A DNA stretch of 41,247 nucleotides, from NCBI GenBank assembly GCA_964434235.1, contig CAYSUN010000004.1, positions 1 to 41,247 of the forward strand, given 5' to 3'. The position numbers and the translations under genes were made by a program. Shown here one piece after another: positions 5,401-39,109 of the stretch. Numbering within the stretch: position 1 is the stretch's first letter; every line of letters begins with the position of its first letter. A model generated the notes under the pieces. It made no database searches, had not been told where the DNA came from, and was given only the letters and a program-made list of their open reading frames with translations. Source of the stretch: an uncultured Gammaproteobacteria bacterium. GTDB lineage: Bacteria; Patescibacteriota; Patescibacteriia; UBA11705; JABHMO01.

Positions 5401-5449
5401 TCTGAAAGTTAGATTGAATTAGGGTAAACACCATTTATTTTTAACTTTT

Positions 5450-5493
5450 ACCCCAAACTATAACGTTATAAAACGTTAAGTTCAGGGCAAGCC
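5450..5493 (-). repeat. Copy R1 of a ~44-nt structured repeat family (accccaaactataacgttataaaacgttaagttcagggcaagcc; the reverse orientation of the copies at 26459 and 29999)
   Basis: Near-identical to 29999..30041 after reverse complementation. It contains the palindrome tataacgttata. Confidence 0.7.
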
Positions 5494-5510
5494 TTTTTAC
5501 TTAATAGAAT

Positions 5511-9477: not shown

Positions 9478-11091
9478 TTAATTGGCAATTGTTTCTGCTT
9501 CGGAAGTTAATTCTTCCTCGGCCGGAGTGGGTGGAGTTTCTTCTGGTTGTTGGTCTTCAGAAACGCCAGCTAGGACATCTTGTGAAATGCCAAGTTTGTC
9601 AAGTAGCCCGTCTACGTTAAGACCAGTTTCCTTCAGTTTGTTGAATAAACCGAAGAGCAGTGCGGGACCATTGCCAGCAAAGCGAGAAACTGCCTTGCCG
9701 TCACCTTGGTCAATAACTACTACCTTGTCGATTGCACTCATCGGCTTGGCAATCTCAGCCATAACCGGAGCCATAGACTCAATCACTGAAGGCATTGCCT
9801 CAAGGATCATCAGCAGACGGCCGGATTGGTCCAGCTTGGCCATAGCCTCAGCCTTCTTGTCGATTGCCATAGCCTCAGCTAGACCCTTAGCCTGAATACC
9901 AGCTGCTTCTGCTAGCTTGATTGCTCGGATCTTGTCACCCTCGGCTTCACCGATTGCTTTGATCTTGGCAGCCTCGCCCGCACCCTCGAGTTGTCGCTTC
10001 ATCTTCTCGCCTTCGGCAAGATTGATTTCTGATTGTTTTTGTCCTTCAGATGCTTTGATGAGCGCACGTCGTTCACCATCAGCCACAGCTTCAGCAGCGT
10101 CAGCGGCCTTTTGGGCAGGAACCACCTTATTGGCGATTTCTTCTTTTTCCGCCACGGCGATCTTTTGAATTTGTACATCCACCAAGGCCTTTTGGTGAGC
10201 TTCCTCAACCTTGGTTTCCTCAACAATTACGCCTTGACGAGCAACTGCATCAGCCTTCGGGCCAGCTTGGAGCGTACGTGAAGTTTCTGCGTTAACTTCA
10301 GCTTGATACGTTTGTTTTTTTACATCGCGGTCACGTTCAGCGTTCGCAATCTGAGCCTCGTTTTCAGCCTGAACAACTTTTGCGGATCTTTGAGCTTCGG
10401 CAACTTTGATGGCACTATCTCGTTCAGCCTCAGCATTACCAATATTACCAAATTTTTCTTGCTGAGCAACTTCAACCTTAGCTTTGTTGATAGCCTCAGC
10501 GGCTGCTCTTTTTCCGATTGCGTCAATATAGCCGGACTCATCTGTAATATCTCGAATATTTACGTTAATAAGCTTGAGACCAATTTTTTTGAGTTCAACT
10601 TCAACGTTTTCCTGGATCTTTTCTTCAAAGGTTTTACGATCAGCGTTAATTTCCACAATTCCCATAGTTGCGATAGTGGCACGCATTTGTCCGAAAATGA
10701 TTTCAGCGGATTGCCTTGTAATTTCCTTTTCACCCATACTTAGGAGTCTTTCTGCTGCAGCCTGCATGATTGCTGGTTCAGTTGAAATACCAAGTGTAAA
10801 TTGGGCAGGAACGTTGACACGAATGTTTTCTTTCGATAGAGCAGACTTCAGGTCAATATCAATTGACAATGGCTGTAAAGAAAGATATTTGTAGTTTTGT
10901 AATATTGGCCAGATAAAGGCTGCACCACCGTGGATGCATTTGGCCGATTGTCCCTTGCCCGTCCTACCACAAATGACTAGAATCTTATCTGGAGGACATC
11001 GGCGGTAGCGAGTGATTGCCACGATAAGAATTGAAAAAAGCATCACACCAGCAATAACTTCTAGAATCAGGAACCAAGGAATACTGGGCAT
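9478..11091 (-). CDS. Flotillin-like SPFH/band-7 protein (FloT/YqiK-type) with a long Ala/Glu-rich coiled coil
   Basis: N-terminal TM helix, an SPFH core, then EA-rich repeats. The locus GC (~50%) is far above the flanks. Confidence 0.85.
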   Translation of the reverse strand: MPSIPWFLILEVIAGVMLFSILIVAITRYRRCPPDKILVICGRTGKGQSAKCIHGGAAFIWPILQNYKYLSLQPLSIDIDLKSALSKENIRVNVPAQFTLGISTEPAIMQAAAERLLSMGEKEITRQSAEIIFGQMRATIATMGIVEINADRKTFEEKIQENVEVELKKIGLKLINVNIRDITDESGYIDAIGKRAAAEAINKAKVEVAQQEKFGNIGNAEAERDSAIKVAEAQRSAKVVQAENEAQIANAERDRDVKKQTYQAEVNAETSRTLQAGPKADAVARQGVIVEETKVEEAHQKALVDVQIQKIAVAEKEEIANKVVPAQKAADAAEAVADGERRALIKASEGQKQSEINLAEGEKMKRQLEGAGEAAKIKAIGEAEGDKIRAIKLAEAAGIQAKGLAEAMAIDKKAEAMAKLDQSGRLLMILEAMPSVIESMAPVMAEIAKPMSAIDKVVVIDQGDGKAVSRFAGNGPALLFGLFNKLKETGLNVDGLLDKLGISQDVLAGVSEDQQPEETPPTPAEEELTSEAETIAN

Positions 11092-15164: not shown

Positions 15165-15251
15165 GGAGGGCTGCCGGAGTGGTTGAACGGGACGCTCTCG
15201 AAAAGCGTTGGTCCTTTACCGGTCCCGTGAGTTCAAATCTCACGCCCTCCG
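15165..15251 (+). tRNA. tRNA-Ser (anticodon CGA), class II, CCA not encoded
   Basis: Acceptor stem GGAGGGC/GCCCTCC, T-loop GTGAG-TTCAAAT-CTCAC, anticodon loop CTCGAAA. Flanked by a 9-bp extended complementarity ggcaaagcg/cgctttgcc. Confidence 0.85.
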
Positions 15252-15382
15252 CTTTGCCAGTTTAATAAAAGGACTACAAGTGATTATTGACATTTATTAT
15301 TTATTGGATTAATATACAAAATCGTTTAAGTTTAATGTTGGTTAAGTGCTCAAAAACAGATTTTTGCGAAGGAGGAACTTAG

Positions 15383-17356: not shown

Positions 17357-17635
17357 TTATTCACGATTCAGTTGTTCTTGAGTCTTATAAACAAGACCAG
17401 ATTTGATCTTAGAAGGAACATTTTCAAGATCAGTTTGAACTTGACAGCAAGGACACCGAAAAGTTACATAATAATAAGTTTCATCTCGACAGTGACCTCT
17501 AGTTTCATAAAGATCATCTGCTTTGACAAGTAATTTCGCACCACAACCACCATTACCATTTCCCTTGCCAGTACAAACTGCTTCAACCGACCACTCTTTT
17601 TGTGTTTGTGGATGTCCTTTTTTAAGTACTTTCAT
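17357..17635 (-). CDS. Small zinc-ribbon protein, paralog 1 of a tandem triplet (Cx9C … CPCC)
   Basis: MKVLKKG…CTGKGNGNGGCGAKLL…YYYVTFRCPCC. Its start overlaps the preceding gene in ATGAAAGTACTTAA. Confidence 0.55.
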   Translation of the reverse strand: MKVLKKGHPQTQKEWSVEAVCTGKGNGNGGCGAKLLVKADDLYETRGHCRDETYYYVTFRCPCCQVQTDLENVPSKIKSGLVYKTQEQLNRE

Positions 17636-17925
17636 TTTGATTCTCCTTTTGTTTATTGTTTTTCTTCCAAGTAGACTTTGAAAATAGCTGACAATAAATG
17701 ATTAACGGAACTGCATTTAAATTAGTTTCAACACCGCAACATGGACAAGTGAAAGTGATGTAGGTTTCTTTGTCACCGCAAGAGTCAGTGTAGAAGGTTT
17801 TGTATAGGTCAACTTGTTCCACGAGTAATTTTGCGCCACAACCAACGCCACGCTTATCCCCCGCCAGTACAAACTGCTTCGACAGACCAACCTTTTTGGG
17901 GACAACCCTTTTTAAGTACTTTCAT
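17622..17925 (-). pseudogene. Paralog 2 of the zinc-ribbon triplet, interrupted by a +1 frameshift in a G5 run (ggcgggggataa)
   Basis: The N-terminal frame reads MKVLKKGCPQKGWSVEAVCTGGG* and the C-terminal frame reads …GVGCGAKLLVEQVDLYKTFY…TCPCCGVET. The linker has one nucleotide more than paralog 1. Confidence 0.5.
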
Positions 17926-18148
17926 GTTCCCTCCTGGTTTCAACAGCTAAAGTTCTAACTCGTGGATGAACTTCGTTGTACTGAAGTACATTCCATTGTC
18001 CGCAAACAGGGCAGTAATAATGGTAGTCATCACCATCAAATTTAACATCATCTTTTTCAAGAAGTAGCTTGGCTTTGCAGTCTTTGTTGGTGCAAGTTTT
18101 TTCTCTTGACCAATTATCGTTCCAGTGACCATTGTCCAAGATTTTCAT
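17912..18148 (-). CDS. Small zinc-ribbon protein, paralog 3 (Cx4C … CPVC)
   Basis: MKILDNGHW…CTNKDCKAKLLL…YHYYCPVCG. RBS AAGGAG. It ends in the same ATGAAAGTACTTAA overlap. Confidence 0.55.
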   Translation of the reverse strand: MKILDNGHWNDNWSREKTCTNKDCKAKLLLEKDDVKFDGDDYHYYCPVCGQWNVLQYNEVHPRVRTLAVETRREHEST

Positions 18149-18354
18149 AATTGGCTCCTTGGTGCATGGTAAATTGTTAATGAACCCTTGCCATCAGGCA
18201 TAGGCATTGTGCAATGTAATTGTGAATAAGTATATTTAATTTTGTAGTAAAATTTGTATTTATATTTTTATTTTGCTATAATTAGATTAATAATAATAAA
18301 TAATTACTACGAAAATTATCGTAATAAACATAGTGATTCAGCTATTTAATTTAA

Positions 18355-18440
18355 AGCTGCCCGCAGGGCGGCTGCGCGCCAGCGCATAGTAACCCCCTCC
18401 CGCTGTTAATTTAATTGCAGGGAGGGGGTTGGGGGTGGGC
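18355..18440 (+). repeat. GC-rich structured element A (hairpins agctgccc/gggcggct, gcgc-gcca-gcgc, ccccctccc/gggaggggg, then ttgggggtggg)
   Basis: A second copy lies at 26388..26506 and carries a 33-nt insertion. Confidence 0.6.
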
Positions 18441-18453
18441 CAGTTCTATTTTT

Positions 18454-19236
18454 ATGAATAATATGAAGCAATTATCAATAATTGAAAACCAAGAAATTGA
18501 AGAAGTCCTTAGTTCATTTGGATTAAGCGCAAATGAACAAAAAGTATATTTAAGTTTGCTTAGTCTTGGAAAAAGTACACTCAGTCCATTATCAAAAATG
18601 GCTAATCTAAATTTAACAACAGTCCAGTCTATTGTGAAAAGATTGATTAATTTGGGTTTAACAGAAGTTAGTTTGATCAAAACGCGCAGTCTTTACCAAG
18701 CGACCGAGCCAATTACTTTGAAAAAAATTTTGGAAAACAAAATTAAGGAAGTTAGCACTATAATTCCTTTCTTAAAAAAAATTCAGCAAGAAGAAGTTGT
18801 TAGTTCAAAAATAAAAGTTTATTACAAAGACCGAATGACTGAAATTTTTAATCAAATATTAGAGGAAGAAGAGGATGAAGTATTGGAAATAGTATCAGCC
18901 GAAGATTTTCAGGAAATTATTGGTGAAAAATTTCATTTTACAAAAAGACGTGTTGAAAAAAATATAAAACTGAAAAGTTTAAGAATTGAAAATCAAGAAA
19001 TTAAAAAATACAACTCCGAAGTTCACGAAAAAGAACTTCGGCAAGCAAAATTTTTACCGGCTGAGTTAACTTTCCGAAATTCAATTATGATTTGGCAAAA
19101 CAAAGTTGCTTTTTTCACAACCAAAGAAGAAGGCTTAGCTTGGATAGTGGAAAGTTCAACACAAAATGAAATGTGGCGTCAATTATTTGAATTGTTGTGG
19201 AGTGTTAGTCGAAAAATGGAAACCGCGAATAAATAA
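18454..19236 (+). CDS. TrmB-family transcriptional regulator
   Basis: N-terminal wHTH: LSANEQKVYLSLLSLGKSTLSPLSKMANLNLTTVQSIVKRLINLGL. Confidence 0.65.
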   Translation: MNNMKQLSIIENQEIEEVLSSFGLSANEQKVYLSLLSLGKSTLSPLSKMANLNLTTVQSIVKRLINLGLTEVSLIKTRSLYQATEPITLKKILENKIKEVSTIIPFLKKIQQEEVVSSKIKVYYKDRMTEIFNQILEEEEDEVLEIVSAEDFQEIIGEKFHFTKRRVEKNIKLKSLRIENQEIKKYNSEVHEKELRQAKFLPAELTFRNSIMIWQNKVAFFTTKEEGLAWIVESSTQNEMWRQLFELLWSVSRKMETANK

Positions 19237-19327
19237 TTGGAGGTAAACAAAAAAAATGTTATAATTAATTTAGTTTGAAAGTTGTAAAGTAAAAAATTTG
19301 TAAAGTTGAGCTACATAGCACAAGAAA

Positions 19328-19560
19328 ATGAAGTTTGATAAGTTTGAGGACATTCTAGCTTGGCAAAAAGCAGAAGAATTAACCATTGAGATATACAAAG
19401 TTTTTGCACATTGTCAGGATTTTAATTTTAAAAGGCAAGGCTTCATTTGTCGGTGAAGTTAAAATATATTTCCAAAGAGGAGTACAATGAACTTATAATA
19501 AGAGCAACAGAAATATCAAAAATATTATCAGGCTTGATTAAAACACTTTATACTTTATGA
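19328..19560 (+). pseudogene. Internally deleted remnant of a four-helix-bundle ('23S rRNA IVS') protein gene
   Basis: N-terminus MKFDKFEDILAWQKAEELTIEIYKVF…, then a frame break, then the C-terminus …ISKEEYNELIIRATEISKILSGLIKTL. Compare the intact copies at 28988 and 38708. Confidence 0.5.
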
Positions 19561-19611
19561 ACTTTATACTTTATAAACTTTTAACTTTATAAACTTTTAA
19601 CTTCTATTTTT

Positions 19612-19863
19612 ATGTTAAATTTTTTGGAAAATCTTTATCATCACAGTCGAACAACTTTAATGTGGTTTGTGGTTTATTTTGTAATTCAGACCGTGATTTG
19701 GATATCGCTTGGCGTTTTGATTCTTTTATATCCACAAACACTTTTCATTTTAGTTGCTCTTTTCTTTGTGTTGTTTTCAGCTGTTAATTTATATTTTGCG
19801 ATTGTGTTTGCAAGTTATTTTCATAAATTAAAAAAACTTAAAACTGCTATTCGATTAAAATAA
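19612..19863 (+). CDS. Small two-TM membrane protein, hypothetical
   Basis: Hydrophobic ORF preceded by short tandem aacttttaactt(t/c)ata repeats. Confidence 0.35.
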   Translation: MLNFLENLYHHSRTTLMWFVVYFVIQTVIWISLGVLILLYPQTLFILVALFFVLFSAVNLYFAIVFASYFHKLKKLKTAIRLK

Positions 19864-19907
19864 AAATGCGAATTTGCTACTCTTGGGCAAATCAGCAAAT
19901 TGTAAAT

Positions 19908-20774
19908 ATGAAAGTAAAAAAATTAATTATACCTGTGGCTGGTTATGGTACTCGTTTTTTACCAGCAACCAAAGCTCAACCAAAAGAAATGTTGCCAGTT
20001 GTTGATAAACCAATTGTTCAATATGTAGTTGAAGATGCAGTTCGAGCTGGAATAGAAACCATTATTTTGGTAACTGGTAGTGGCAAGCGAGCAGTAGAAG
20101 ATCATTTTGGGTATAATTATGAACTGCAAAGTTATCTAAGAAAAACTGGGAAAAATGATTTACGTAAAGAAATCAAGCACATTGCGGACATGGCTAATTT
20201 TATTTATATTCGCCAAAAAGGCCCATACGGAAATGGTACACCAGTTCTTTGTGCCAAGCATTTAATTGGTGATGAACCATTTGCAGTTATGTGGGGAGAT
20301 GAGTTTTTTTATACCAAGAAAAAATCGCAACTAGCGCAGTTAATCGAGGTTTATGAAAAATACCAAGATCCGGTTTTAACTGCTTATAATGTTTCCAAGC
20401 AAGATACGAATAAATACGGAATTATTGATGGAATAGAAATAGAAAAAAATGTTATTCAAGTAAAAAATATTGTTGAAAAACCAGGACCACAAAAAGCGCC
20501 ATCAACTTTGGCTACGCTTGGCGGATTTGTTTTAACACCAGATATTTTTGAAATGTTAGAAAAAACAAAACTGGGCAAAGGCGGAGAACTTTGGTTAACA
20601 GATGCGATTGCAAGATTATCTCAAACAAGACCGATTTATGCGCGTAAAATTGAAGGCACATATTATGATACTGGTTCGAAAATCGGTTATTTAAAGGCCA
20701 ACGTTGAATTGGCCTTAACTAGGCCAGACTTAAAAAAAGAGTTTAGAAAATATTTGAAAAATTTAAAAATATAA
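19908..20774 (+). CDS. galU: UTP–glucose-1-phosphate uridylyltransferase
   Basis: [39 protein letters not shown] is the GalU signature. Confidence 0.9.
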   Translation: [288 protein letters not shown]

Positions 20775-20845
20775 CAGAGTAACTAAAGTTATCCTTTTTA
20801 TCTTATATATCCCATTTATCTTATTACAAATAAAAACAAAAAAAT

Positions 20846-22264
20846 ATGTTTACCAAAAGTAAATATAAGATTATAGCCAGTGTCTTGTTGCTAATTTTTA
20901 CTTTAACTGGTTGTACTAAAGGTGGAACGACTGAAGCAAAAAGTGCTTATAAAGCTGAAGTTTTGAATTGGTGGAGTGTTTGGGATGATTATTCAGACGT
21001 TATTCCTTTGATTGATGCTTATCGAGCGCAACACCCAAATGTTCGAGTTGATTATAGAAAACTTCGTTATGAAGAATACGAAAAAGAATTAATAAACGCG
21101 CTAGCTGAAGATCGTGGACCGGATGTTTTTTCAATTCACAATACTTGGATGAAAAGATATGTAAATAAATTGTTGCCAGCTCCAGCCAGTGTTTCTTTGC
21201 CTATTAAATACACTACTGGTGGTATAAAAAAAGAAGAGGTCGTTGAATTTAGGACGAACAATTTACCATCTCCAGCGGTGGTTAGAAAAAACTTTTTAGA
21301 TGTAGTATCACCTGATGTTATTATGCTTGATGAAACTGGTGCAGAAGATACTTGGCGAGAAAAAGTTTGGGGCTTGCCAATGAGTATGGATACTTTGGTT
21401 ATGTTTTATAATAAAGATATTTTAAATAACGCAGGTATTGTTGAACCAGCGAAAAGTTGGACTGAATTTCAGGATCATGTTAAACGAATTACCAAGATTA
21501 GTAGTGAAACTGGTGAAATATTATTATCTGGCGGTGCAATTGGCACAGCTGATAACGTTGAAAGAAGTTTTGATATTTTGTCTTTATTAATGATGCAGAA
21601 TTTGACACCAATGACCAACCAAGCTGGCTACGCAACTTTTACAGAAGCTCCAAAAAATATTACTAATATTCAAACTCCTCCTGCCATTGGAGCAATTGAT
21701 TTTTATGTTCAGTTTGCTTCACCTTTGCACGAGATTTATACTTGGAACAATCAAATGCCAAATTCCATCGACGCTTTTATTGATGGTAAGGTTGCATATA
21801 TTTTTGGTTATTCATATTACAAAGATCGAATAATGGCCGAAGCGCCACAGTTAAATTGGAGTATTGCTTCAATGCCACAAGTTGGGGATCAACAAAAAGT
21901 TAATTATGCTAGTTATTGGGTACAAGGAGTTTCCAAAAAATCAAAAGTTCCTCAGTATGCTTGGGATTTTGTTAATTTTATAACGGCTGAAGCTAATGTT
22001 CCTGTTTATCTAAATAAAGCTGGAACAACAACTGCTCTTCGTTCAACAAAATTAATTAACGAACATCTAGCCAATGAAGCTTTAGCGGTTCAGGCTGAAC
22101 AGTTGTTAACAGCCAAAAGTTGGTATCGAGGGCAAAGTCCTTTGGCGGCCGAAGATATTTTCGCGACATTAATTAATAGTGTATTACAGGCAGATGTCGA
22201 AGTGGAGGATGCCCTAAAAAATTCAGCTAATCAAATAAATTACTCTATAAATAATTCTTTATGA
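20846..22264 (+). CDS. Lipoprotein, extracellular solute-binding protein (ABC-type sugar SBP-like)
   Basis: Lipobox LTGC. SBP family-1-like length and composition. Confidence 0.6.
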   Translation: MFTKSKYKIIASVLLLIFTLTGCTKGGTTEAKSAYKAEVLNWWSVWDDYSDVIPLIDAYRAQHPNVRVDYRKLRYEEYEKELINALAEDRGPDVFSIHNTWMKRYVNKLLPAPASVSLPIKYTTGGIKKEEVVEFRTNNLPSPAVVRKNFLDVVSPDVIMLDETGAEDTWREKVWGLPMSMDTLVMFYNKDILNNAGIVEPAKSWTEFQDHVKRITKISSETGEILLSGGAIGTADNVERSFDILSLLMMQNLTPMTNQAGYATFTEAPKNITNIQTPPAIGAIDFYVQFASPLHEIYTWNNQMPNSIDAFIDGKVAYIFGYSYYKDRIMAEAPQLNWSIASMPQVGDQQKVNYASYWVQGVSKKSKVPQYAWDFVNFITAEANVPVYLNKAGTTTALRSTKLINEHLANEALAVQAEQLLTAKSWYRGQSPLAAEDIFATLINSVLQADVEVEDALKNSANQINYSINNSL

Positions 22265-22626
22265 GAAAATATTTAATTATCACGATCGTAATCTTTTGGG
22301 GTGTACTTGGGGTGGCACAAAGCACTTTTGCTTTTCCTTCGATTGTGCCTGTAAATTGTCAAGGTAATGCAGAAGTTTCAGTGTGTAACTTAAGTGAAGT
22401 AGAATCAATGATCGGAACTGTTGCTCAAATTGTTTTGGGCTTGGCTGGTTCTGTTACATTGGCAGTATTTGTTGTGGCTGGTATTATGTATACAGCTTCT
22501 GGCGGAAATAAAAATATAATCGGCAAAGCAACGGACATGTTGAAAAATGCTTTTTTGGGATTAGTACTTATATTTTTAGCTGGAGTTATTGTAAAAACTT
22601 TATTAAGTGTCTTAAGTAAGTCTTAG
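22261..22626 (+). CDS. VirB2/TrbC-like (T4SS-type) pilin family protein, paralog 1 of 9
   Basis: Signal peptide, then a hydrophobic helix, the loop YTASGGNKN…, and a second hydrophobic helix. Confidence 0.5.
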   Translation: MRKYLIITIVIFWGVLGVAQSTFAFPSIVPVNCQGNAEVSVCNLSEVESMIGTVAQIVLGLAGSVTLAVFVVAGIMYTASGGNKNIIGKATDMLKNAFLGLVLIFLAGVIVKTLLSVLSKS

Positions 22627-22629
22627 CTT

Positions 22630-22992
22630 TTGTATATGAAAAAAATATTAATAATTACATTTTTAAGTCTATTGATTTTACCAACAATAGTGTTTGCGCA
22701 AGGAGCCGTGTCACAGGCAAAAGCGAAAATTACTTCTGTTATGCCAGGGGAACTAGTGAAAGATGCAGATGCAAATATAATTTTAGGAAATGCAATTAGT
22801 AAGGGGTTGGGGATAATCGGCAGTGTGGCTTTGGTTATTTTTATTGCAAGTGGTATAATATGGATGACCTCAGCTGGGAATGAGAAAAGAGTCAAGCTGG
22901 CTGAGCAAAGTTTAATTTGGGCAGCCTTGGGGTTGTTTGTTATATTTTTCAGTTATATTTTTGTTAATAATGTTATTGGAAAGTTGGGTTAA
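22630..22992 (+). CDS. VirB2/TrbC-like pilin paralog 2
   Basis: …IASGIIWMTSAGNEKRVKLAEQ… flanked by two hydrophobic helices. Confidence 0.5.
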   Translation: MYMKKILIITFLSLLILPTIVFAQGAVSQAKAKITSVMPGELVKDADANIILGNAISKGLGIIGSVALVIFIASGIIWMTSAGNEKRVKLAEQSLIWAALGLFVIFFSYIFVNNVIGKLG

Positions 22993-23038
22993 AAAAAATT
23001 AGAAATTTAAATATAAAAAATAAATAATTTTTACGAAC

Positions 23039-23437
23039 ATGAAGTTAAACACAAACAAAATCAAAGTGTTTGCAGCTTTATTCTTAGCTGTTTTTGCACT
23101 TTCGTTTCTAGCGCTTCCAGTTTTAGCACAAAACAATGATCCATTTGGAGTTACTGCTGTTGGTGGTAATTTAGGACTTGGTAATAAAGATTTAAGAGAA
23201 ACAATTGGTTCTATTATCAAGGCTGCTTTAGGCTTTCTTGGTGTAGTTGCTGTGGTTATTGTTTTGATCGGTGGTTTCAAATACATGACAGCTGGTGGTA
23301 GTGATGAAAAAGTTCAAGATGCTAGAAAATACATTGTTTCTGGTATTATTGGTCTTGCTATTGTTTTGAGCGCTTATGCTATTACAACCTTTGTTGTAAG
23401 TAATTTAATTAGTGCAACAAACGCTAATACTTTGTAA
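23039..23437 (+). CDS. VirB2/TrbC-like pilin paralog 3
   Basis: …LIGGFKYMTAGGSDEKVQDARKY…. Confidence 0.5.
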   Translation: MKLNTNKIKVFAALFLAVFALSFLALPVLAQNNDPFGVTAVGGNLGLGNKDLRETIGSIIKAALGFLGVVAVVIVLIGGFKYMTAGGSDEKVQDARKYIVSGIIGLAIVLSAYAITTFVVSNLISATNANTL

Positions 23438-23517
23438 TTTTTTTGAAGTGGGTAGTTTTACTGCCCCTTCTCATTAGCCAATAATTGTTAATAAAGTTTT
23501 GTTGGTTGATGAGAAGT

Positions 23518-23907
23518 ATGAAAAAGATTATTCCTTTTTTGATGGTAATTTTTATATTTTCTGTACTTGCTATTAGCGTACAGCCAGTTTTGGCTGGGGA
23601 CGCAAGCACAACCAGTTTTAAGGATGGACTTGAAAAAACAAACATTGAAGCAAAGTTAGATACTACTGGCACCGTAGAATCAAAGATTGGTAAAATTGCT
23701 GGTATTATTTTTGGCTTTGTTAGTATTGTTTTTCTGATTATGATTGTTTATGGTGGCATTATTTGGATGACTGCTTCAGGAACTGAAGCTAATGTCAAAA
23801 AAGCTAGGGCAACTTTGGTTCATGCTGCAATTGGTTTATTTGTGACGATGATCTCTTATCAAGTTGCTTCTTATGTAATAACGAAAATTGCAGAAACAAC
23901 TTCCTAA
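23518..23907 (+). CDS. VirB2/TrbC-like pilin paralog 4
   Basis: …VYGGIIWMTASGTEANVKKARAT… The start is taken at MKKIIPF. Confidence 0.5.
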   Translation: MKKIIPFLMVIFIFSVLAISVQPVLAGDASTTSFKDGLEKTNIEAKLDTTGTVESKIGKIAGIIFGFVSIVFLIMIVYGGIIWMTASGTEANVKKARATLVHAAIGLFVTMISYQVASYVITKIAETTS

Positions 23908-23913
23908 TTAAAT

Positions 23914-24306
23914 ATGAAAAATGTTTTTTTATTGTTAGTAGTTATAATGTTAATAGTTTTTAACTTTAGTCTTGCACTTGAGCCTGTTTTGGCTGATGGT
24001 GCAACTGACAAAGCTCAAGCTGGTTTAAAAGCCTCAGCTGATACAGCTGGGTTTTCTACAGCCAAAGCTGAACCAGCTGAAGTTATTGGAAAAGCCTTGA
24101 ACATTTTAATTTCTGTTTTAGGAATTATTTTTGTTATTTTGGTTGTTTATGGTGGTGTAACTTGGATGACCGCTACTGGTAATGCTGATCAAGTTAAAAA
24201 AGCTAGATCCATGATTATAGAAGGTGCACTTGGCATGGCTGTTACTTTGGCTTCCTATTCTTTGGCTTCTTATGTAGTAGAAAAAGCATCCTCAGCCACA
24301 CAATAG
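23914..24306 (+). CDS. VirB2/TrbC-like pilin paralog 5
   Basis: …VYGGVTWMTATGNADQVKKARSM…. Confidence 0.5.
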   Translation: MKNVFLLLVVIMLIVFNFSLALEPVLADGATDKAQAGLKASADTAGFSTAKAEPAEVIGKALNILISVLGIIFVILVVYGGVTWMTATGNADQVKKARSMIIEGALGMAVTLASYSLASYVVEKASSATQ

Positions 24307-24348
24307 TAATTTATCATTTAAACACTTAATCACTAAAACAAGAAATCT

Positions 24349-24393
24349 CCGACGTAAAGTACGGAGTCCGTATAGCCTATGGCTCATCGGACA
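24349..24393 (+). repeat. 45-nt hairpin-rich insertion element, copy 1 (tccgacgtaaagtacggag tccgtatagcc-tat-ggctcatcggac)
   Basis: Inserted into a repeat unit that is uninterrupted at 27826..27880. An inverted copy lies at 29425..29469. Confidence 0.75.
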
Positions 24394-24512
24394 ATAAAAC
24401 ATAAAAACAAGAAAACAAGGAACACAGAACACAGAGCAACCACTTAAGTAGGCTTGCACTTACTACTTAACACTTAATACTTTTTTCACTATTTACTTCT
24501 AACTTCTATATT

Positions 24513-24908
24513 ATGTATAATCTAATTTACAACCAAAACTTTAGACGGATTGCTGTAATTGTTGTGATGATTTGTATGGGATTTATTTTTTCAGCTAGTT
24601 ATGGTTTGGCTAGTCCAACAGAAGAATTAAAAAAAGTTGGGACTGGTATGAATATTACAGCGCCAAAACCAATGCCAGAAGTTATCGGACAAATTATCAA
24701 TATTATTTTAACAATATCTGGAATTATAATGGTGATTTTAGTAGTTTGGGGAGGATTTCAGTGGATGACAGCTGGTGGGAATGAAGATCAGGTCAAGAAA
24801 GCCAAGCAATTATTAATTAACGCCGTTATGGGGTTAGCTATAACTTTATCAGCTTATGCAATTGCCTATTTTGCTGTTGAACAATTAGACAAGGCAACAA
24901 CTACTTAG
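24513..24908 (+). CDS. VirB2/TrbC-like pilin paralog 6
   Basis: …VWGGFQWMTAGGNEDQVKKAKQLLINA…. Confidence 0.55.
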   Translation: MYNLIYNQNFRRIAVIVVMICMGFIFSASYGLASPTEELKKVGTGMNITAPKPMPEVIGQIINIILTISGIIMVILVVWGGFQWMTAGGNEDQVKKAKQLLINAVMGLAITLSAYAIAYFAVEQLDKATTT

Positions 24909-24934
24909 AAGAAATAAATAACTAAATAAATATT

Positions 24935-25339
24935 ATGAAAAAGATATTTGCGATTTTGGCAATTTTAAGCATAATGTTAGTTCCAATGTTAGTTTTTGCT
25001 CAGGGTACGACACCGACAGCTGTAGATTATACAAAGGGTGATCCCAAGGCTGCTTTAACTGATTTAAGGGGTAAATCAGGATATTCAGACAAGTCTGACA
25101 ATTTGGTTGGTGTTATTGGTAATGTCATAAAAATTTTATTAACAGCAGTGGGTATTATAGTAGTAGTTCTTGTTGTTTATGCTGGATTTTTGTGGATGAC
25201 AGCTGGTGGCAATGAAGATCAAGTTAAAAAAGCTAAACAATGGTTAATTAACGCAGTGATTGGCTTAGCCTTGATTATGGCAGCTTATGCAATCTCTGAT
25301 TTCGCTATAACTAATTTAACGACAGCCACAAAAGCCTAA
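24935..25339 (+). CDS. VirB2/TrbC-like pilin paralog 7
   Basis: …VYAGFLWMTAGGNEDQVKKAKQWLINAVIGLALIMAAYAIS…. Confidence 0.55.
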   Translation: MKKIFAILAILSIMLVPMLVFAQGTTPTAVDYTKGDPKAALTDLRGKSGYSDKSDNLVGVIGNVIKILLTAVGIIVVVLVVYAGFLWMTAGGNEDQVKKAKQWLINAVIGLALIMAAYAISDFAITNLTTATKA

Positions 25340-25364
25340 CTTAATTAATATCAGAAAAATAGGT

Positions 25365-25763
25365 ATGAAAAAATTAATTCCAGCTTTAACATTGTTTCTA
25401 GTTTTGTTTATGCCAATTGCTGTTGGAGCGCAGGATTTTTTAGGCGCTGATTACCAGGGTCAACAAACAACTGCTTTTGCTGATTTTAAAACAAAATCAG
25501 GCATGGATGGAAAAGAAAGCAGCTTAGTTGCGATTATAGGAAATGTTGTAAGAATAGTTCTAGTTTTGGTCGGAATAATTGTACTTGTGATTATTGTCTA
25601 TGCTGGTTTTTTGTGGATGACTGCTGGTGGTAATGAAGATCAAGTTAAAAAAGCTAAACAATGGTTAATTAACGCGGTAGTAGGTTTGGCCTTAATTATG
25701 GCAGCTTATGCAATTTCAAGTTTTGTAGTTACTAACTTGTCTTCAGCGACAACGATTAATTGA
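25365..25763 (+). CDS. VirB2/TrbC-like pilin paralog 8
   Basis: Its C-terminal ~80 aa are nearly identical to paralogs 7 and 9, while the N-terminal mature region differs. Confidence 0.55.
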   Translation: MKKLIPALTLFLVLFMPIAVGAQDFLGADYQGQQTTAFADFKTKSGMDGKESSLVAIIGNVVRIVLVLVGIIVLVIIVYAGFLWMTAGGNEDQVKKAKQWLINAVVGLALIMAAYAISSFVVTNLSSATTIN

Positions 25764-25792
25764 AGATTAATAACTAATATATAATAAAAATT

Positions 25793-26191
25793 ATGAAAAA
25801 ACTAATTCCAATTTTGGCACTTTTTTCTTTGCTATTATTCCCTGTGGCCACAATGGCGCAAGACATCTTACAATTAGGTTTGGATGATCAGACGGTTGAA
25901 GAAAATATGGATTATTTTGCTTCAGACTTCGGACAGGATACAGGTGGATCTGATTTGGTTGGGATAATCGGAAATATAGTACGAATCGTTTTGACTTTAT
26001 TGGGCGTTGTTGTACTTGTTATTATTGTTTATGCAGGTTTTTTGTGGATGACAGCTGGTGGTAATGAAGATCAAGTTAAGAAAGCTAAACAATGGCTAAT
26101 TAATGCGATAATAGGTTTAGCCTTAATTTTGGCGGCTTATGCAATTTCAAGTTTTGTAGTAACAAACCTTTCTTCTGCGACAACAATGTAA
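25793..26191 (+). CDS. VirB2/TrbC-like pilin paralog 9
   Basis: Same conserved C-terminal core with a divergent N-terminal region. Confidence 0.55.
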   Translation: MKKLIPILALFSLLLFPVATMAQDILQLGLDDQTVEENMDYFASDFGQDTGGSDLVGIIGNIVRIVLTLLGVVVLVIIVYAGFLWMTAGGNEDQVKKAKQWLINAIIGLALILAAYAISSFVVTNLSSATTM

Positions 26192-26210
26192 AATTATTAT
26201 CAAATAAAAA

Positions 26211-26246
26211 AACTGCCCTCCAAGCATGGATAAGGGCAGTTTTTTT
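26211..26246 (+). terminator. Rho-independent terminator after the pilin array (ctgccct…agggcag followed by ttttttt)
   Basis: Read directly. Confidence 0.6.
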
Positions 26247-26387
26247 GTTGTTCCGTAATCAAATTTGATTCGGAACGCTATCTCTATATTAAAGAGCTAC
26301 TTGGTTGTGAAAGTGAGTTCATTTGTTATGCGAATTAACTGAGAGATACTATAGCGAATGTTCGATTGGTAAGTAGTATTTTTTTTT

Positions 26388-26506
26388 AGCTGCCGGCAGG
26401 CACCCGCGCGGTAGCGCATAATAGCCCCCTTCCGATACAAGAATAAATTACAGGGAGAGCTTGCCACGTACTTAACGAAGTTATAGTTCGTGGGGTTGGG
26501 GGTGGG
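26388..26506 (+). repeat. GC-rich structured element B (a copy of element A) carrying a 33-nt insertion of the R-family repeat at 26459..26491
   Basis: Removing gcttgccacgtacttaacgaagttatagttcgt restores cagggaga|ggggttgggggtggg, as in element A. Confidence 0.6.
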
Positions 26507-26538
26507 TTCTTTTCAAGTTTGTAAAACTATTACAACTT

Positions 26539-27543: not shown

Positions 27544-27639
27544 AAAACCTACTTTTGTTTTAGAAAAAACGGTACTTAATTAATTATAACTTAGCATTTT
27601 AAGTTCAATGTTGCAAAGTAGTTATGCACATTCTTTCTC

Positions 27640-27960
27640 AAAAAAACAAAAAAACAAGAAATCAATAAATCATTTAAACACTTGATCACTAAAACAAGAA
27701 ATCAATAAAACATAAAAACAATAAATCATTTAATCACGGAACATAGAACACAGAACACGGAACATTAATCATAGAACATAAAATCAAGAAAACAAGAAAA
27801 CATAAAAACACTTAATCATTAAAACACTTAATCACTAAAACAAGAAATCAATAAAACATAAAAACAAGAAAACAAGGAAAAGAAGGATTCAAGTAACAAG
27901 AAAAATTTAATACTTAATACTTAATACTTTTTCTTTTTATTTACTTTTAATTTTTAACTT
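27640..27960 (+). repeat. G-depleted A/C-rich degenerate repeat tract with units such as acaagaaatcaataaa, cacttaatcactaaaa and acttaatac. A related tract lies at 24311..24500.
   Basis: Read directly. It contains the uninterrupted target of the 45-nt element (caagaaatc|aataaaacat). Confidence 0.7.
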
Positions 27961-29356: not shown

Positions 29357-29424
29357 TAATATTTATTTGGCTCTTTGTTTTTTAATCGTGTATTTCTCTT
29401 TTAGTGGCTTGTGTTTTCTTGTCC

Positions 29425-29469
29425 GATGAGCCATGGGCTATACGGACTCCGTACTTTACGTCGGAGATT
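29425..29469 (-). repeat. 45-nt hairpin-rich insertion element, copy 2 (inverted orientation, 1 mismatch located in a hairpin loop)
   Basis: Its reverse complement equals 24349..24393 except tat→cat in the loop of the agcc/ggct stem. Confidence 0.75.
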
Positions 29470-29498
29470 TATTGATTTTTTGTTTTATTGAAGTCTCT

Positions 29499-29996
29499 AT
29501 GTCTACCAAAAAAGTAATATTGGGCATTGATCCAGGCTATGGCATTACTGGTTATGGTGTTGTTAGTGTTGAAGGATCAAAAATAACTTGCCTTGATTAC
29601 GGTGTTATTACTACTCGGGCTGGGGATGATTTTGAACTTCGTCTCAAAGATTTGAATAAAGATTTGAAGTTAATCATTAAAAAATATAAACCAGACTTGG
29701 TTGGGGTAGAAGATCTTTTCTTTGCTAAAAATGTTAAAACTGCCATGAAGGTCAGTCACGCCCGTGGCGTAATTATTTTAACTGCAGTTCAGGCTAATGT
29801 GCCGATTGTTGAATTTACTCCCGTTCAAGTTAAGCAGGCGATTTCAGGCTATGGTAAGGCCGAGAAAGCACAAGTTCAGCAAATGGTAAAAACATTCTTG
29901 AACCTGAAACAAATACCAAAACCAGATGATGCGGCTGATGCCTTGGCTGTGGCAGTTTGTGCGGCTAATTCTTTTAAATTAAAAAGTAAAAATTAA
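29499..29996 (+). CDS. ruvC: Crossover junction endodeoxyribonuclease RuvC
   Basis: ILGIDPGYGITGYGVV… The catalytic D and E residues are conserved. The start is taken at MSTKK. Confidence 0.9.
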   Translation: MSTKKVILGIDPGYGITGYGVVSVEGSKITCLDYGVITTRAGDDFELRLKDLNKDLKLIIKKYKPDLVGVEDLFFAKNVKTAMKVSHARGVIILTAVQANVPIVEFTPVQVKQAISGYGKAEKAQVQQMVKTFLNLKQIPKPDDAADALAVAVCAANSFKLKSKN

Positions 29997-29998
29997 AA

Positions 29999-30041
29999 GG
30001 CTTGCCCTGAACTTAACGTCTTATAGCGTTATAGTTCTGGG
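29999..30041 (+). repeat. Copy R3 of the ~44-nt structured repeat (ggcttgccctgaacttaacgtcttatagcgttatagttctggg)
   Basis: Matches the reverse complement of 5450..5493. Confidence 0.7.
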
Positions 30042-30135
30042 TAGATAGTAAATAAAAAATGATAAATATTAGTATTTAACTATTGTTTATCGCTTATTGT
30101 TTATTATTATTTATTTTTTAAGTAAGTATTCATTT

Positions 30136-38707: not shown

Positions 38708-39109
38708 ATGGAAGAAAAAACAACTATTAAATCATTCCAAGATTTTCGAGCTTATCAAAATTTGTATAAGGCAATGCTTATTGTCCACAAGGAAATAGTA
38801 ATTAAATTACCCAGTGATGAAAAATTTGACTTAGTTTCTCAAATGAAAAGAGCGTCAAAAGCTGGGCCAGCCTTATTAGCGGAAGGTTTTTCAAAAAGAT
38901 ACCAAGAAAAAAATTGGGGAAAATATCTGAACGATACACTTGGTGAAGCTAATGAAATGATACATCATTTATCTGTTTGTATTGATATATATGCTTCTTG
39001 TGTTGATATTAATCAATGCAAAGAAGTAATTGATATATATGATCTAGCCTGTAGACAAACAACAAAACTCAAACAAGCGTGGGTTAATTTTCACAAGAAG
39101 AACGATTAA
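38708..39109 (+). CDS. Four-helix-bundle protein ('23S rRNA IVS protein' family), third intact copy
   Basis: …FDLVSQMKRASKAGPALLAEGFSKR… Flanked by imperfect inverted repeats (38666..38711 versus 39121..39260). Confidence 0.75.
   Translation: MEEKTTIKSFQDFRAYQNLYKAMLIVHKEIVIKLPSDEKFDLVSQMKRASKAGPALLAEGFSKRYQEKNWGKYLNDTLGEANEMIHHLSVCIDIYASCVDINQCKEVIDIYDLACRQTTKLKQAWVNFHKKND

Follow-up and report, generated by a model that had tools for sequence, protein, structure and literature searches.

In an intrastrand triplex of the class II purine motif, a second G-rich stem can lie antiparallel in the major groove and contribute to G*G:C, A*A:T and T*A:T triads (PMC4666352). One such motif, TM_ECO, has the consensus CCCTCNCCC N3-6 GGGNGAGGG N3 GGGNGAGGG; 262 proteobacterial genomes yielded 3610 copies of it, and in cyanobacteria G/C-rich motifs are likewise very common (Holder et al., 2015, PMC4666352). 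In E. coli MG1655, all TM_ECO copies that were characterised lie between genes, with no strand bias; the single strand forms a stable triplex in vitro, and the motif has neither promoter nor terminator activity and is associated with local genomic variability (PMC4666352). Related repeats are the PIT elements of Enterobacteria, with a loop limit of 0–10 nt (Hoyne et al., 2000; Hoyne and Maher, 2002), and the repetitive potential G-quadruplex (G4) sequences of Methanomicrobiaceae, for which an equilibrium of hairpin, triplex and G4 was reported in vitro (Chashchina et al., 2021, PMC8044849). Here we describe two G/C-rich elements, A and B, in a 41,247-nt stretch of DNA (positions 1–41,247 of contig CAYSUN010000004.1, assembly GCA_964434235.1; the whole stretch is hereafter the window) of an uncultured bacterium that GTDB assigns to the Patescibacteriota.

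Two copies of a composite repeat

With a probability of roughly 0.68, we regard A and B as a diverged pair of copies of one dispersed DNA repeat, which is non-coding, composite in build, lineage-specific and structure-prone. The term dispersed is drawn from two insertions and from a 3′ module that occurs across phyla, both described below. Element A occupies positions 18355–18441 (+ strand, 87 nt) and element B positions 26388–26508 (+ strand, 121 nt), as direct copies of one composite repeat of about 87 bases. When a 34-nt insertion of B (26458–26491) is taken out, 64 of 88 alignment columns are invariant, and the longest run identical between the two copies is 15 nt. Both contain, in the same order, AGCTGCCnGCAGG, GCGC-N4-GCGC, ATA(G/A)TA(A/G), CCCCCT(C/T)CC, CAGGGAG and GGGGTTGGGGGTGGG, with 17 AT-rich nucleotides between CCCCCT(C/T)CC and CAGGGAG. 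The AGCTGCCnGCAGG box lies at 18355–18367 in A and at 26388–26400 in B. The 15-mer GGGGTTGGGGGTGGG (18425–18439 and 26492–26506) occurs exactly twice in the window even with up to three mismatches, where 0.27 occurrences are expected. Within the window, a covariance model built from A and B matched A (107.8 bits) and B (71.2 bits) and nothing else.

The pair had first been noticed in a reading of the letters without database searches (hereafter the sequence-only reading), which described two GC-rich, multi-hairpin elements. This description was confirmed, and both elements lie at the coordinates it had given, on the + strand. Its figure of about 70% GC holds for A (66.7%) and for the GC blocks of B, but not for B as a whole (54.5%); the window has 33.1% GC. 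It had also stated that stems are kept while loops differ. The loops of the small hairpin do differ (GCCA versus GGTA), but the GCGC/GCGC stems are identical in A and B and thus provide no evidence of covariation. The parts of the two elements are as follows.

18355–18441, + strand: element A as a whole; 5′ box, small hairpin, linker and triplex motif
18355–18373, + strand: 5′ domain of A, AGCTGCCCGCAGGGCGGCT; a predicted 8-bp hairpin, in A only
18374–18385, + strand: small hairpin of A, GCGC-GCCA-GCGC
18386–18392, + strand: linker of A, ATAGTAA
18393–18401, + strand: C-arm of A, CCCCCTCCC; pyrimidine strand of the predicted triplex duplex
18402–18419, + strand: loop 1 of A, 18 nt, AT-rich and itself partly paired
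18420–18428, + strand: G-arm of A, GGGAGGGGG; purine strand
18429–18430, + strand: loop 2 of A, TT
18431–18439, + strand: predicted third strand of A, GGGGGTGGG; mirror of the G-arm with T opposite A
26388–26508, + strand: element B as a whole; the same composite with a 34-nt insertion
26406–26417, + strand: small hairpin of B, GCGC-GGTA-GCGC
26425–26433, + strand: C-arm of B, CCCCCTTCC; a C-to-T change gives one T·G apposition
26453–26457, + strand: 5′ part of the split G-arm of B, GGGAG
26458–26491, + strand: 34-nt insertion of B with its own hairpin (CACG...CGTG), splitting the G-arm
26492–26506, + strand: remainder of the G-arm of B, GGGG, followed by TT and the predicted third strand GGGGGTGGG

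A 5′ domain of 38 nt (box, GCGC hairpin and linker) is common to A and B. According to fold prediction, the 5′ box is kept in B as a sequence (AGCTGCCnGCAGG) but not as a structure. Neither the 38-nt domain as such nor the AGCTGCCnGCAGG box was found outside A and B. The insertion of B sits between CAGGGAG and GGGG, and with its hairpin exactly inside the G-arm it resembles a nested small insertion into a triplex motif.

Element A lies between three minus-strand small open reading frames (ORFs) and a TrmB-family gene (PF01978), ending 12 nt before the ATG of the latter. Element B comes after the terminator of a T4SS-pilin array, has the 3′ end of the convergent PGI gene on its other side and has no gene downstream on its own strand. 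The zinc-ribbon triplet, the TrmB-like regulator gene and the pilin-array terminator, which the sequence-only reading had named as neighbours, were borne out; the small ORFs have cysteine motifs, and the terminator is visible at about 26210–26246. The organism belongs to the Patescibacteria (CPR), as shown by the named homologues of its TrmB-like protein, which are from Magasanikbacteria, Uhrbacteria, Falkowbacteria and Paceibacterota. The contigs with the closest homologues (55–60% identity) retain synteny; one of them, L123, keeps the full order trmB, NTP-transferase, SBP, pilin array, PGI, yebC and ruvC.

A is absent from the orthologous region upstream of trmB in all four syntenic relatives (L123, L125, L126 and L129), the position at which a conserved trmB leader would be expected. 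An extended -10 and a ‘ctacgaaaa..tcgta’ box are recognisable in the same four relatives. The box is 3–8 nt from the trmB start codon in the relatives and 130 nt in the window, and A, inserted between this box and the start codon, accounts for most of the extra distance. B is missing from L123, as are the 141 palindrome-rich nucleotides ahead of it. Since A and B are missing from the orthologous regions of the relatives, the comparison shows that both are gains of this Patescibacteria lineage. Independent assemblies from several samples agree on the two elements: A does not differ between two ENA assemblies, one ENA and one JGI assembly have the same sequence throughout the intergenic region of B, and a second JGI contig has the same element B. 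Both elements are thus fixed in the sampled population. Two fresh insertions beside well-conserved synteny would make a clean case for studying how such repeats originate and spread.

The predicted triplex module and its relatives

The 3′ half of the element reads CCCCCTCCC, loop, GGGAGGGGG, TT and GGGGGTGGG, i.e. a C-arm and a G-arm, followed by a third strand in mirror symmetry to the latter. In A this arrangement has nine triads, all of them perfect (eight C·G*G and one T·A*T), the sole T of the third strand sitting exactly opposite the sole A of the G-arm. In B there are eight triads and one T·G, and the G-arm is broken between triads 4 and 5. The Watson-Crick stem of pyrimidine and purine strands, for which 6–15 nt is the published range, pairs at 9 of 9 positions in A and at 8 of 9 plus one T·G in B. 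In both copies GGGGGTGGG is an antiparallel mirror of GGGAGGGGG with T opposite A, and loop 2 has 2 nt (TT; published range 1–6 nt). Both copies are intergenic, a repeat count of two that comes from 41 kb of the genome. The ‘single-stranded’ G tail, which is strictly conserved, mirrors the G-arm and is therefore predicted to be the third strand of a triplex. G4Hunter reaches 2.32 in A. A mutant form of the third strand GGGGGTGGG is GCGCGTGCG (design only).

Motifs were searched for with our own ITxF-style scan, requiring stems of at least 8 nt with no mismatch and a loop 2 of 1–6 nt, with loop 1 relaxed to at most 60 nt. The scan reported one motif in the window, element A, and none in 100 first-order Markov simulations or in the four syntenic relatives.

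Further copies had been suggested by the sequence-only reading as something to look for, and it had named their absence together with a lack of transcription, or a match to a known insertion sequence (IS) terminus, as outcomes that would speak against it. The outcome was mixed: no full-length copies beyond A and B and no IS match were found, but the 3′ module has very many relatives in other phyla, and these fall into an already described class of DNA repeat (PMC4666352). For the full-length element, the A and B covariance model matched nothing further in the window, in the same-species contigs or in 92 kb of relatives. An exact pattern for the middle of the element had no matches in viral contigs and none in GTDB representative genomes, while in JGI metagenomes it returned locus B itself only; the source genome lies outside the GTDB set, and the pattern matching A was not found there. 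Exact protein look-ups past the window ends led to short contigs only. A BLAST comparison of A with plasmids gave short sub-significant matches only (E 0.07–0.9), B with its upstream region had no match among phages, and the exact element sequence was not found in the searched literature.

The 3′ module was traced in GTDB genomes with the pattern CCCCCT-N20-50-GGGGTTGGGGGTGGG, which was present at no fewer than 120 loci in many phyla (Sphingomonadales, Rhizobiales, Nostocales, Oscillospiraceae, other Bacillota, Bacteroidales, Chloroflexota, Planctomycetota and others). Nearly all matches have a hairpin (C)CCCCTCCC-loop-GGGAGGGG(G) directly before TTGGGGGTGGG(G). As the pattern itself partly selects for the C-arm, we also examined the viral contigs retrieved by the bare 15-mer alone. 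In this less biased set, a perfect 8-bp hairpin was present in 28 of 114 occurrences. Unselected variants among these viral loci read GGGAGGGG-NN-GGGGGTGGG, with NN being CA, CC, CT, TC or TA. When the position of the A moves, the mirror moves with it, GGGAGGGGG being paired with GGGGGTGGG and GGGGGAGGG with GGGAGGGGG. The third strand thus tracks the position of the A, which is the covariation that a mirror constraint predicts.

Full triplex motifs numbered 145 in 0.85 Mb of genome-scan loci and 76 in 1.04 Mb of viral 15-mer loci, compared with one in 1.11 Mb of GC-rich control loci, i.e. 7–17 per 100 kb versus 0.09 per 100 kb. Loop 1 spans 3–58 nt in the cross-phylum set with a mode of 3–6, so the window copies, with 18–19 nt, are long-loop variants of that family. 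In sphingomonad replicons of the plasmid collection the motif is multicopy, and nearly all matches have no annotated feature. The variant CCCC(C)TCCC ... GGGAGGGG(G) TT GGGGGTGGG(G) is found again, with hardly a letter changed, in distant phyla and in viral contigs, annotated neither by Rfam nor in the records sampled.

Bacillota copies show the same layout, a GC hairpin of the GGGGGCGAAGCCCCC type, followed by an A/T-rich linker of 3–11 nt that often ends in AG or TAG, and then CCCCCTCCC. Copies in general show no enrichment of a GC hairpin on their upstream side (40 upstream versus 31 downstream, n = 137); such a hairpin is consistent only in copies of the Bacillota type. The 15-mer CTGCGCGCCAGCGCA of the small hairpin was considered as an independent widespread module and dropped, its viral matches being chance occurrences in GC-rich DNA that are not linked to the G tail. 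It does recur 3′ of the triplex motif in two related Bacillota loci, L146 and L211, where CTGCGCG(C/T)CAGCGCA comes right after the motif; the L146 version is identical to the small hairpin of A. Another Bacillota locus, L201 (3960–5100), has two tandem units of about 400 nt and an inverted copy, each ending in a triplex motif. In L163, L187, L193 and other Oscillospiraceae loci, a T-run derived from the A-rich linker follows the motif hairpin on the strand opposite the G tail; with a C-rich leader ahead, this arrangement looks like an intrinsic terminator.

For the structure itself, we propose that the C-arm would pair with the G-arm and that the G-strand, after the 2-nt loop, could fold back antiparallel as the third strand (G*G:C and T*A:T). 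Alternatively, the same four G-tracts could form a G-quadruplex. The elements would act, if at all, on transiently single-stranded DNA. The G-rich strand of A and B is the + strand, and both are located to the right of the origin region around dnaA and dnaN, at which the GC skew becomes positive. The + strand there would be the lagging-strand template and hence transiently single-stranded, a state in which a hairpin, triplex or G4 could form. Rather than genes, the elements may then be obstacles that are prone to form structures, or hot spots of instability, as reported for the E. coli triplex motifs. In addition, A would be co-transcribed in the 5′ untranslated region (UTR) of trmB, and its hairpin (−26 kcal/mol) may there have an incidental effect on the stability or translation of the mRNA. 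Between 5026 and 5715 the window has an AT-rich gap (15–31% GC) beside dnaA and dnaN from which cumulative GC skew rises, and this gap is likely the replication origin.

Several points weigh against a triplex repeat. Loop 1, at 18 nt in A and 19 nt in B, is longer than both the 1–6 nt of ITxF and the 0–10 nt of Hoyne, and the G-arm of B is split by 34 nt, beyond published loop limits. The 5′ domain has no counterpart in published motifs, and only two full-length copies are known. The TM_ECO triplex was not detected in vivo (PMC4666352), and a role at the level of DNA cannot be separated from one at the level of RNA by sequence alone.

A bolder version, which we hold to be a long shot, is that the composite is a self-propagating ‘triplex element’ spreading horizontally by a shared mobilisation or maintenance mechanism, with A recruited as a switch between hairpin, triplex and G-quadruplex in the 5′ UTR of the regulator gene at the head of the pilin operon. 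If this were true, the near-identity of G-arm and third strand across phyla (compared in Patescibacteria, Bacillota, Cyanobacteria, Bacteroidota, Chloroflexota and Alphaproteobacteria) would mean a shared mechanism and not convergence on a stable fold.

Alternative explanations and genomic setting

The sequence-only reading had proposed a structured non-coding RNA (ncRNA) or a regulatory element. In its RNA form, this explanation assumes a + strand transcript with three hairpins, A controlling translation or stability of trmB from the 5′ UTR, for example by switching between a hairpin and a G-quadruplex or between alternative pairings of CCCCCUCCC with the two G segments. The multi-hairpin character and the homology of the two copies stand. 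A folds on the + strand at −50.4 kcal/mol (z −3.3), it lies in the inferred 5′ UTR close to the ATG, and its G4Hunter score is likewise in keeping with such a switch. The extra hairpin of B is at a junction, as is frequent in RNA families, and its C-to-U change leaves a G·U pair on the + strand but would leave A·C on the − strand. Among stem mismatches, G·T (61) outnumbers A·C (28), an excess that is due to arm composition and so does not settle the strand.

The fold of B, however, is no better than that of shuffled sequences (z −1.5), and RNAalifold applied to the A and B pair showed no compensatory change. The Rfam covariance models, to which the sequence-only reading had pointed, gave no family over A or B: at gathering score they reported two tRNAs in the window, and when relaxed to E ≤ 10 their best matches over the elements (E 0.85–8) were far below threshold. 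In 18 cross-phylum loci Rfam reported tRNAs only and no model for the motif. The absence of A from the orthologous UTRs of four relatives and the location of B, after a terminator and with no downstream gene on its strand, also speak against an RNA, and triplex symmetry accounts for the invariant tail. An inserted repeat thus appears to fit better than a conserved RNA gene, and we consider the RNA explanation unlikely. The signal recognition particle RNA, transfer-messenger RNA, RNase P, 6S RNA and small ribozymes were considered and dropped. For annotation, the repeat reading would avoid a false ncRNA call and offer a rule for recognition, namely a hairpin and, after it, a G-strand in mirror symmetry to the G-arm.

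Somewhat more doubtful is a non-autonomous transposable element, i.e. a miniature inverted-repeat transposable element (MITE), repetitive extragenic palindrome (REP) or REPIN, mobilised in trans by a transposase whose gene lies elsewhere in the genome, for instance a RAYT/IS200-like HUH enzyme with specificity for the hairpin and flanking tag. The insertions are lineage-specific, and in some genomes of other phyla the motif occurs as inverted pairs, 90–150 nt apart with the G tails outward. In Dolichospermum it is found inside a MITE with terminal repeats ATGAGGTACA. A TAG-type tag is frequent 5′ of the C-arm in cross-phylum copies and recalls the GTAG-tagged REPs (PMC3733652). A and B, however, have no terminal inverted repeats, inverted REP doublets or target duplications, the inverted doublets being confined to other phyla. 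No transposase was found in the window, no neighbour gene family recurs across the 120 loci examined, and an IS200 TnpA query (a weak test) matched nothing in any locus. For TM_ECO, too, Holder et al. found no link to mobile elements (PMC4666352).

That the two direct repeats are recombination sites for deletion or excision of the 8-kb trmB-to-pilin operon is hardly credible: the copies do bracket 18.4–26.5 kb in direct orientation and triplex motifs are tied to local rearrangement in E. coli, but an identical run of 15 nt is short for homologous recombination, overall identity is limited to the 64 of 88 columns, the operon occupies the corresponding place in L123, where the repeats are missing, every assembly recovered has the same sequence at this locus, and no recombinase gene is nearby.

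Other candidates were considered and dropped. These were attC sites, the initiation of mutagenic homing site plus hairpin of diversity-generating retroelements (DGRs), a dif-like site, for which the GCGCATAA match is within chance, and the cyanobacterial small dispersed repeats, which are reported only in Nostocaceae.

Two features of the surroundings bear directly on the positions of A and B.

18274–18282, + strand: inferred extended -10 (TGcTATAAT) of the trmB-like gene, from conservation in relatives
26247–26387, no strand assigned: palindrome-rich stretch of 141 nt directly upstream of B, absent from syntenic L123

As the promoter is conserved in relatives, A is placed inside the inferred 5′ UTR of the trmB-like gene. 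In a comparison of window positions 18240–18330 with L123 (9000–9107) and with L125, L126 and L129 (about 9900–10000), the extended -10 (TGnTATAAT-like) is flanked by conserved inverted ‘ttttcgtag / ctacgaaaa..tcgta’ boxes, which are probably an autoregulatory operator. The palindromes upstream of B, also listed in the sequence-only reading, proved real and fold well: the stretch has three hairpins on the + strand and z-scores of −3.3 (+) and −3.7 (−). It is identical in three assemblies and may be part of the same insertion as B, or a separate one.

The three small ORFs at 17357–18148 (− strand) are paralogues with C..C ... CPxC motifs and share a 42-nt repeat that is 86% identical. Ahead of trmB, the relatives L125, L126 and L129 have three to four similar small ORFs and then a NUDIX gene, and L123 has an uncalled ORF-like sequence in the corresponding gap.

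Elsewhere in the window, A-rich arrays with an 8-nt period (ACAAGAAA, TCAATAAA, ACATAAAA, ACACTTAA and TCACTAAA) occur in both orientations in several intergenic regions (27622–27914; 24298–24438; 29409–29490; 5434–5502 and 29990–30058), including the divergent region of PGI and yebC and the origin-proximal gap; the PGI-adjacent array is also present in JGI contig L130. An SPFH/Band 7 gene (PF01145; 9478–11091, − strand) has 49–56% GC against 33% for the window, which could reflect horizontal acquisition or a strong compositional constraint. ARAGORN predicted a tRNA-Ser(cga) at 15165–15252 (+ strand) that the Rfam tRNA model did not report at gathering score. The ORF at 38708–39109 (+ strand) belongs to the 23S rRNA intervening-sequence protein family (PF05635). 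The accessory Avd proteins of DGRs have the same fold as this family.

Comparison with described repeats

Returning to the reading of A and B as copies of a dispersed triplex-type repeat, we compared the composite with described systems. REP and REPIN sequences (PMC3116915, PMC2817692, PMC3733652) too are short GC-rich extragenic palindromes that occur as singlets or inverted doublets with a hairpin-adjacent tag, but they have no mirror-repeat third strand, and their family is defined by a RAYT gene, which was not found here. The Methanomicrobiaceae repeats share four G-runs, a C3TC3 tract and an intergenic, interspersed distribution with our elements. They differ in being mirror-ordered, with the G-rich third strand 5′ and the C tract 3′, in a central loop of 3–5 nt and in their archaeal hosts.

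TM_ECO and the PIT elements likewise consist of a C-rich stem, a loop, a G-rich stem, a short loop and a mirror G-rich stem, with stems of 9 nt, and are intergenic, multicopy, unannotated and known in inverted-pair configurations. Of 5426 E. coli genomes, 5409 had matches to a TM_ECO-like 39-mer, the median number of places in a genome being 14; none of the five matches listed coincides with an annotated feature. TM_ECO in the strict sense is not what we observe, as the stem sequence and both loop lengths differ: the stem is CCCCCTCCC here and CCCTCNCCC in TM_ECO, loop 2 has 2 nt instead of 3, and loop 1 has at least 18 nt instead of 3–6. The conserved 38-nt 5′ domain is an addition relative to TM_ECO and PIT, and the host is an AT-rich Patescibacteria genome.

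We found no earlier report in the literature of G/C-rich intrastrand triplex repeats in Patescibacteria or in AT-rich, reduced genomes of this kind. As far as we found, A and B would thus extend such repeats to an AT-rich, reduced Patescibacteria genome, where a sequence of 67% GC is costly and conspicuous. From the arrangement of their arms, A and B are best filed as architecturally variant G/C-rich intrastrand triplex (PIT/TM) repeats. Also close to them are the cross-phylum ...GGGAGGGG(G)TTGGGGGTGGG(G) motifs, which have an identical G-arm, loop 2 and third strand and frequently TAG before the C-arm. The Bacillota copies among them also share the layout of an upstream GC hairpin and an A/T linker, with the hairpin being GCGC-N4-GCGC in A and B and GGGGGCGAAGCCCCC in Bacillota.

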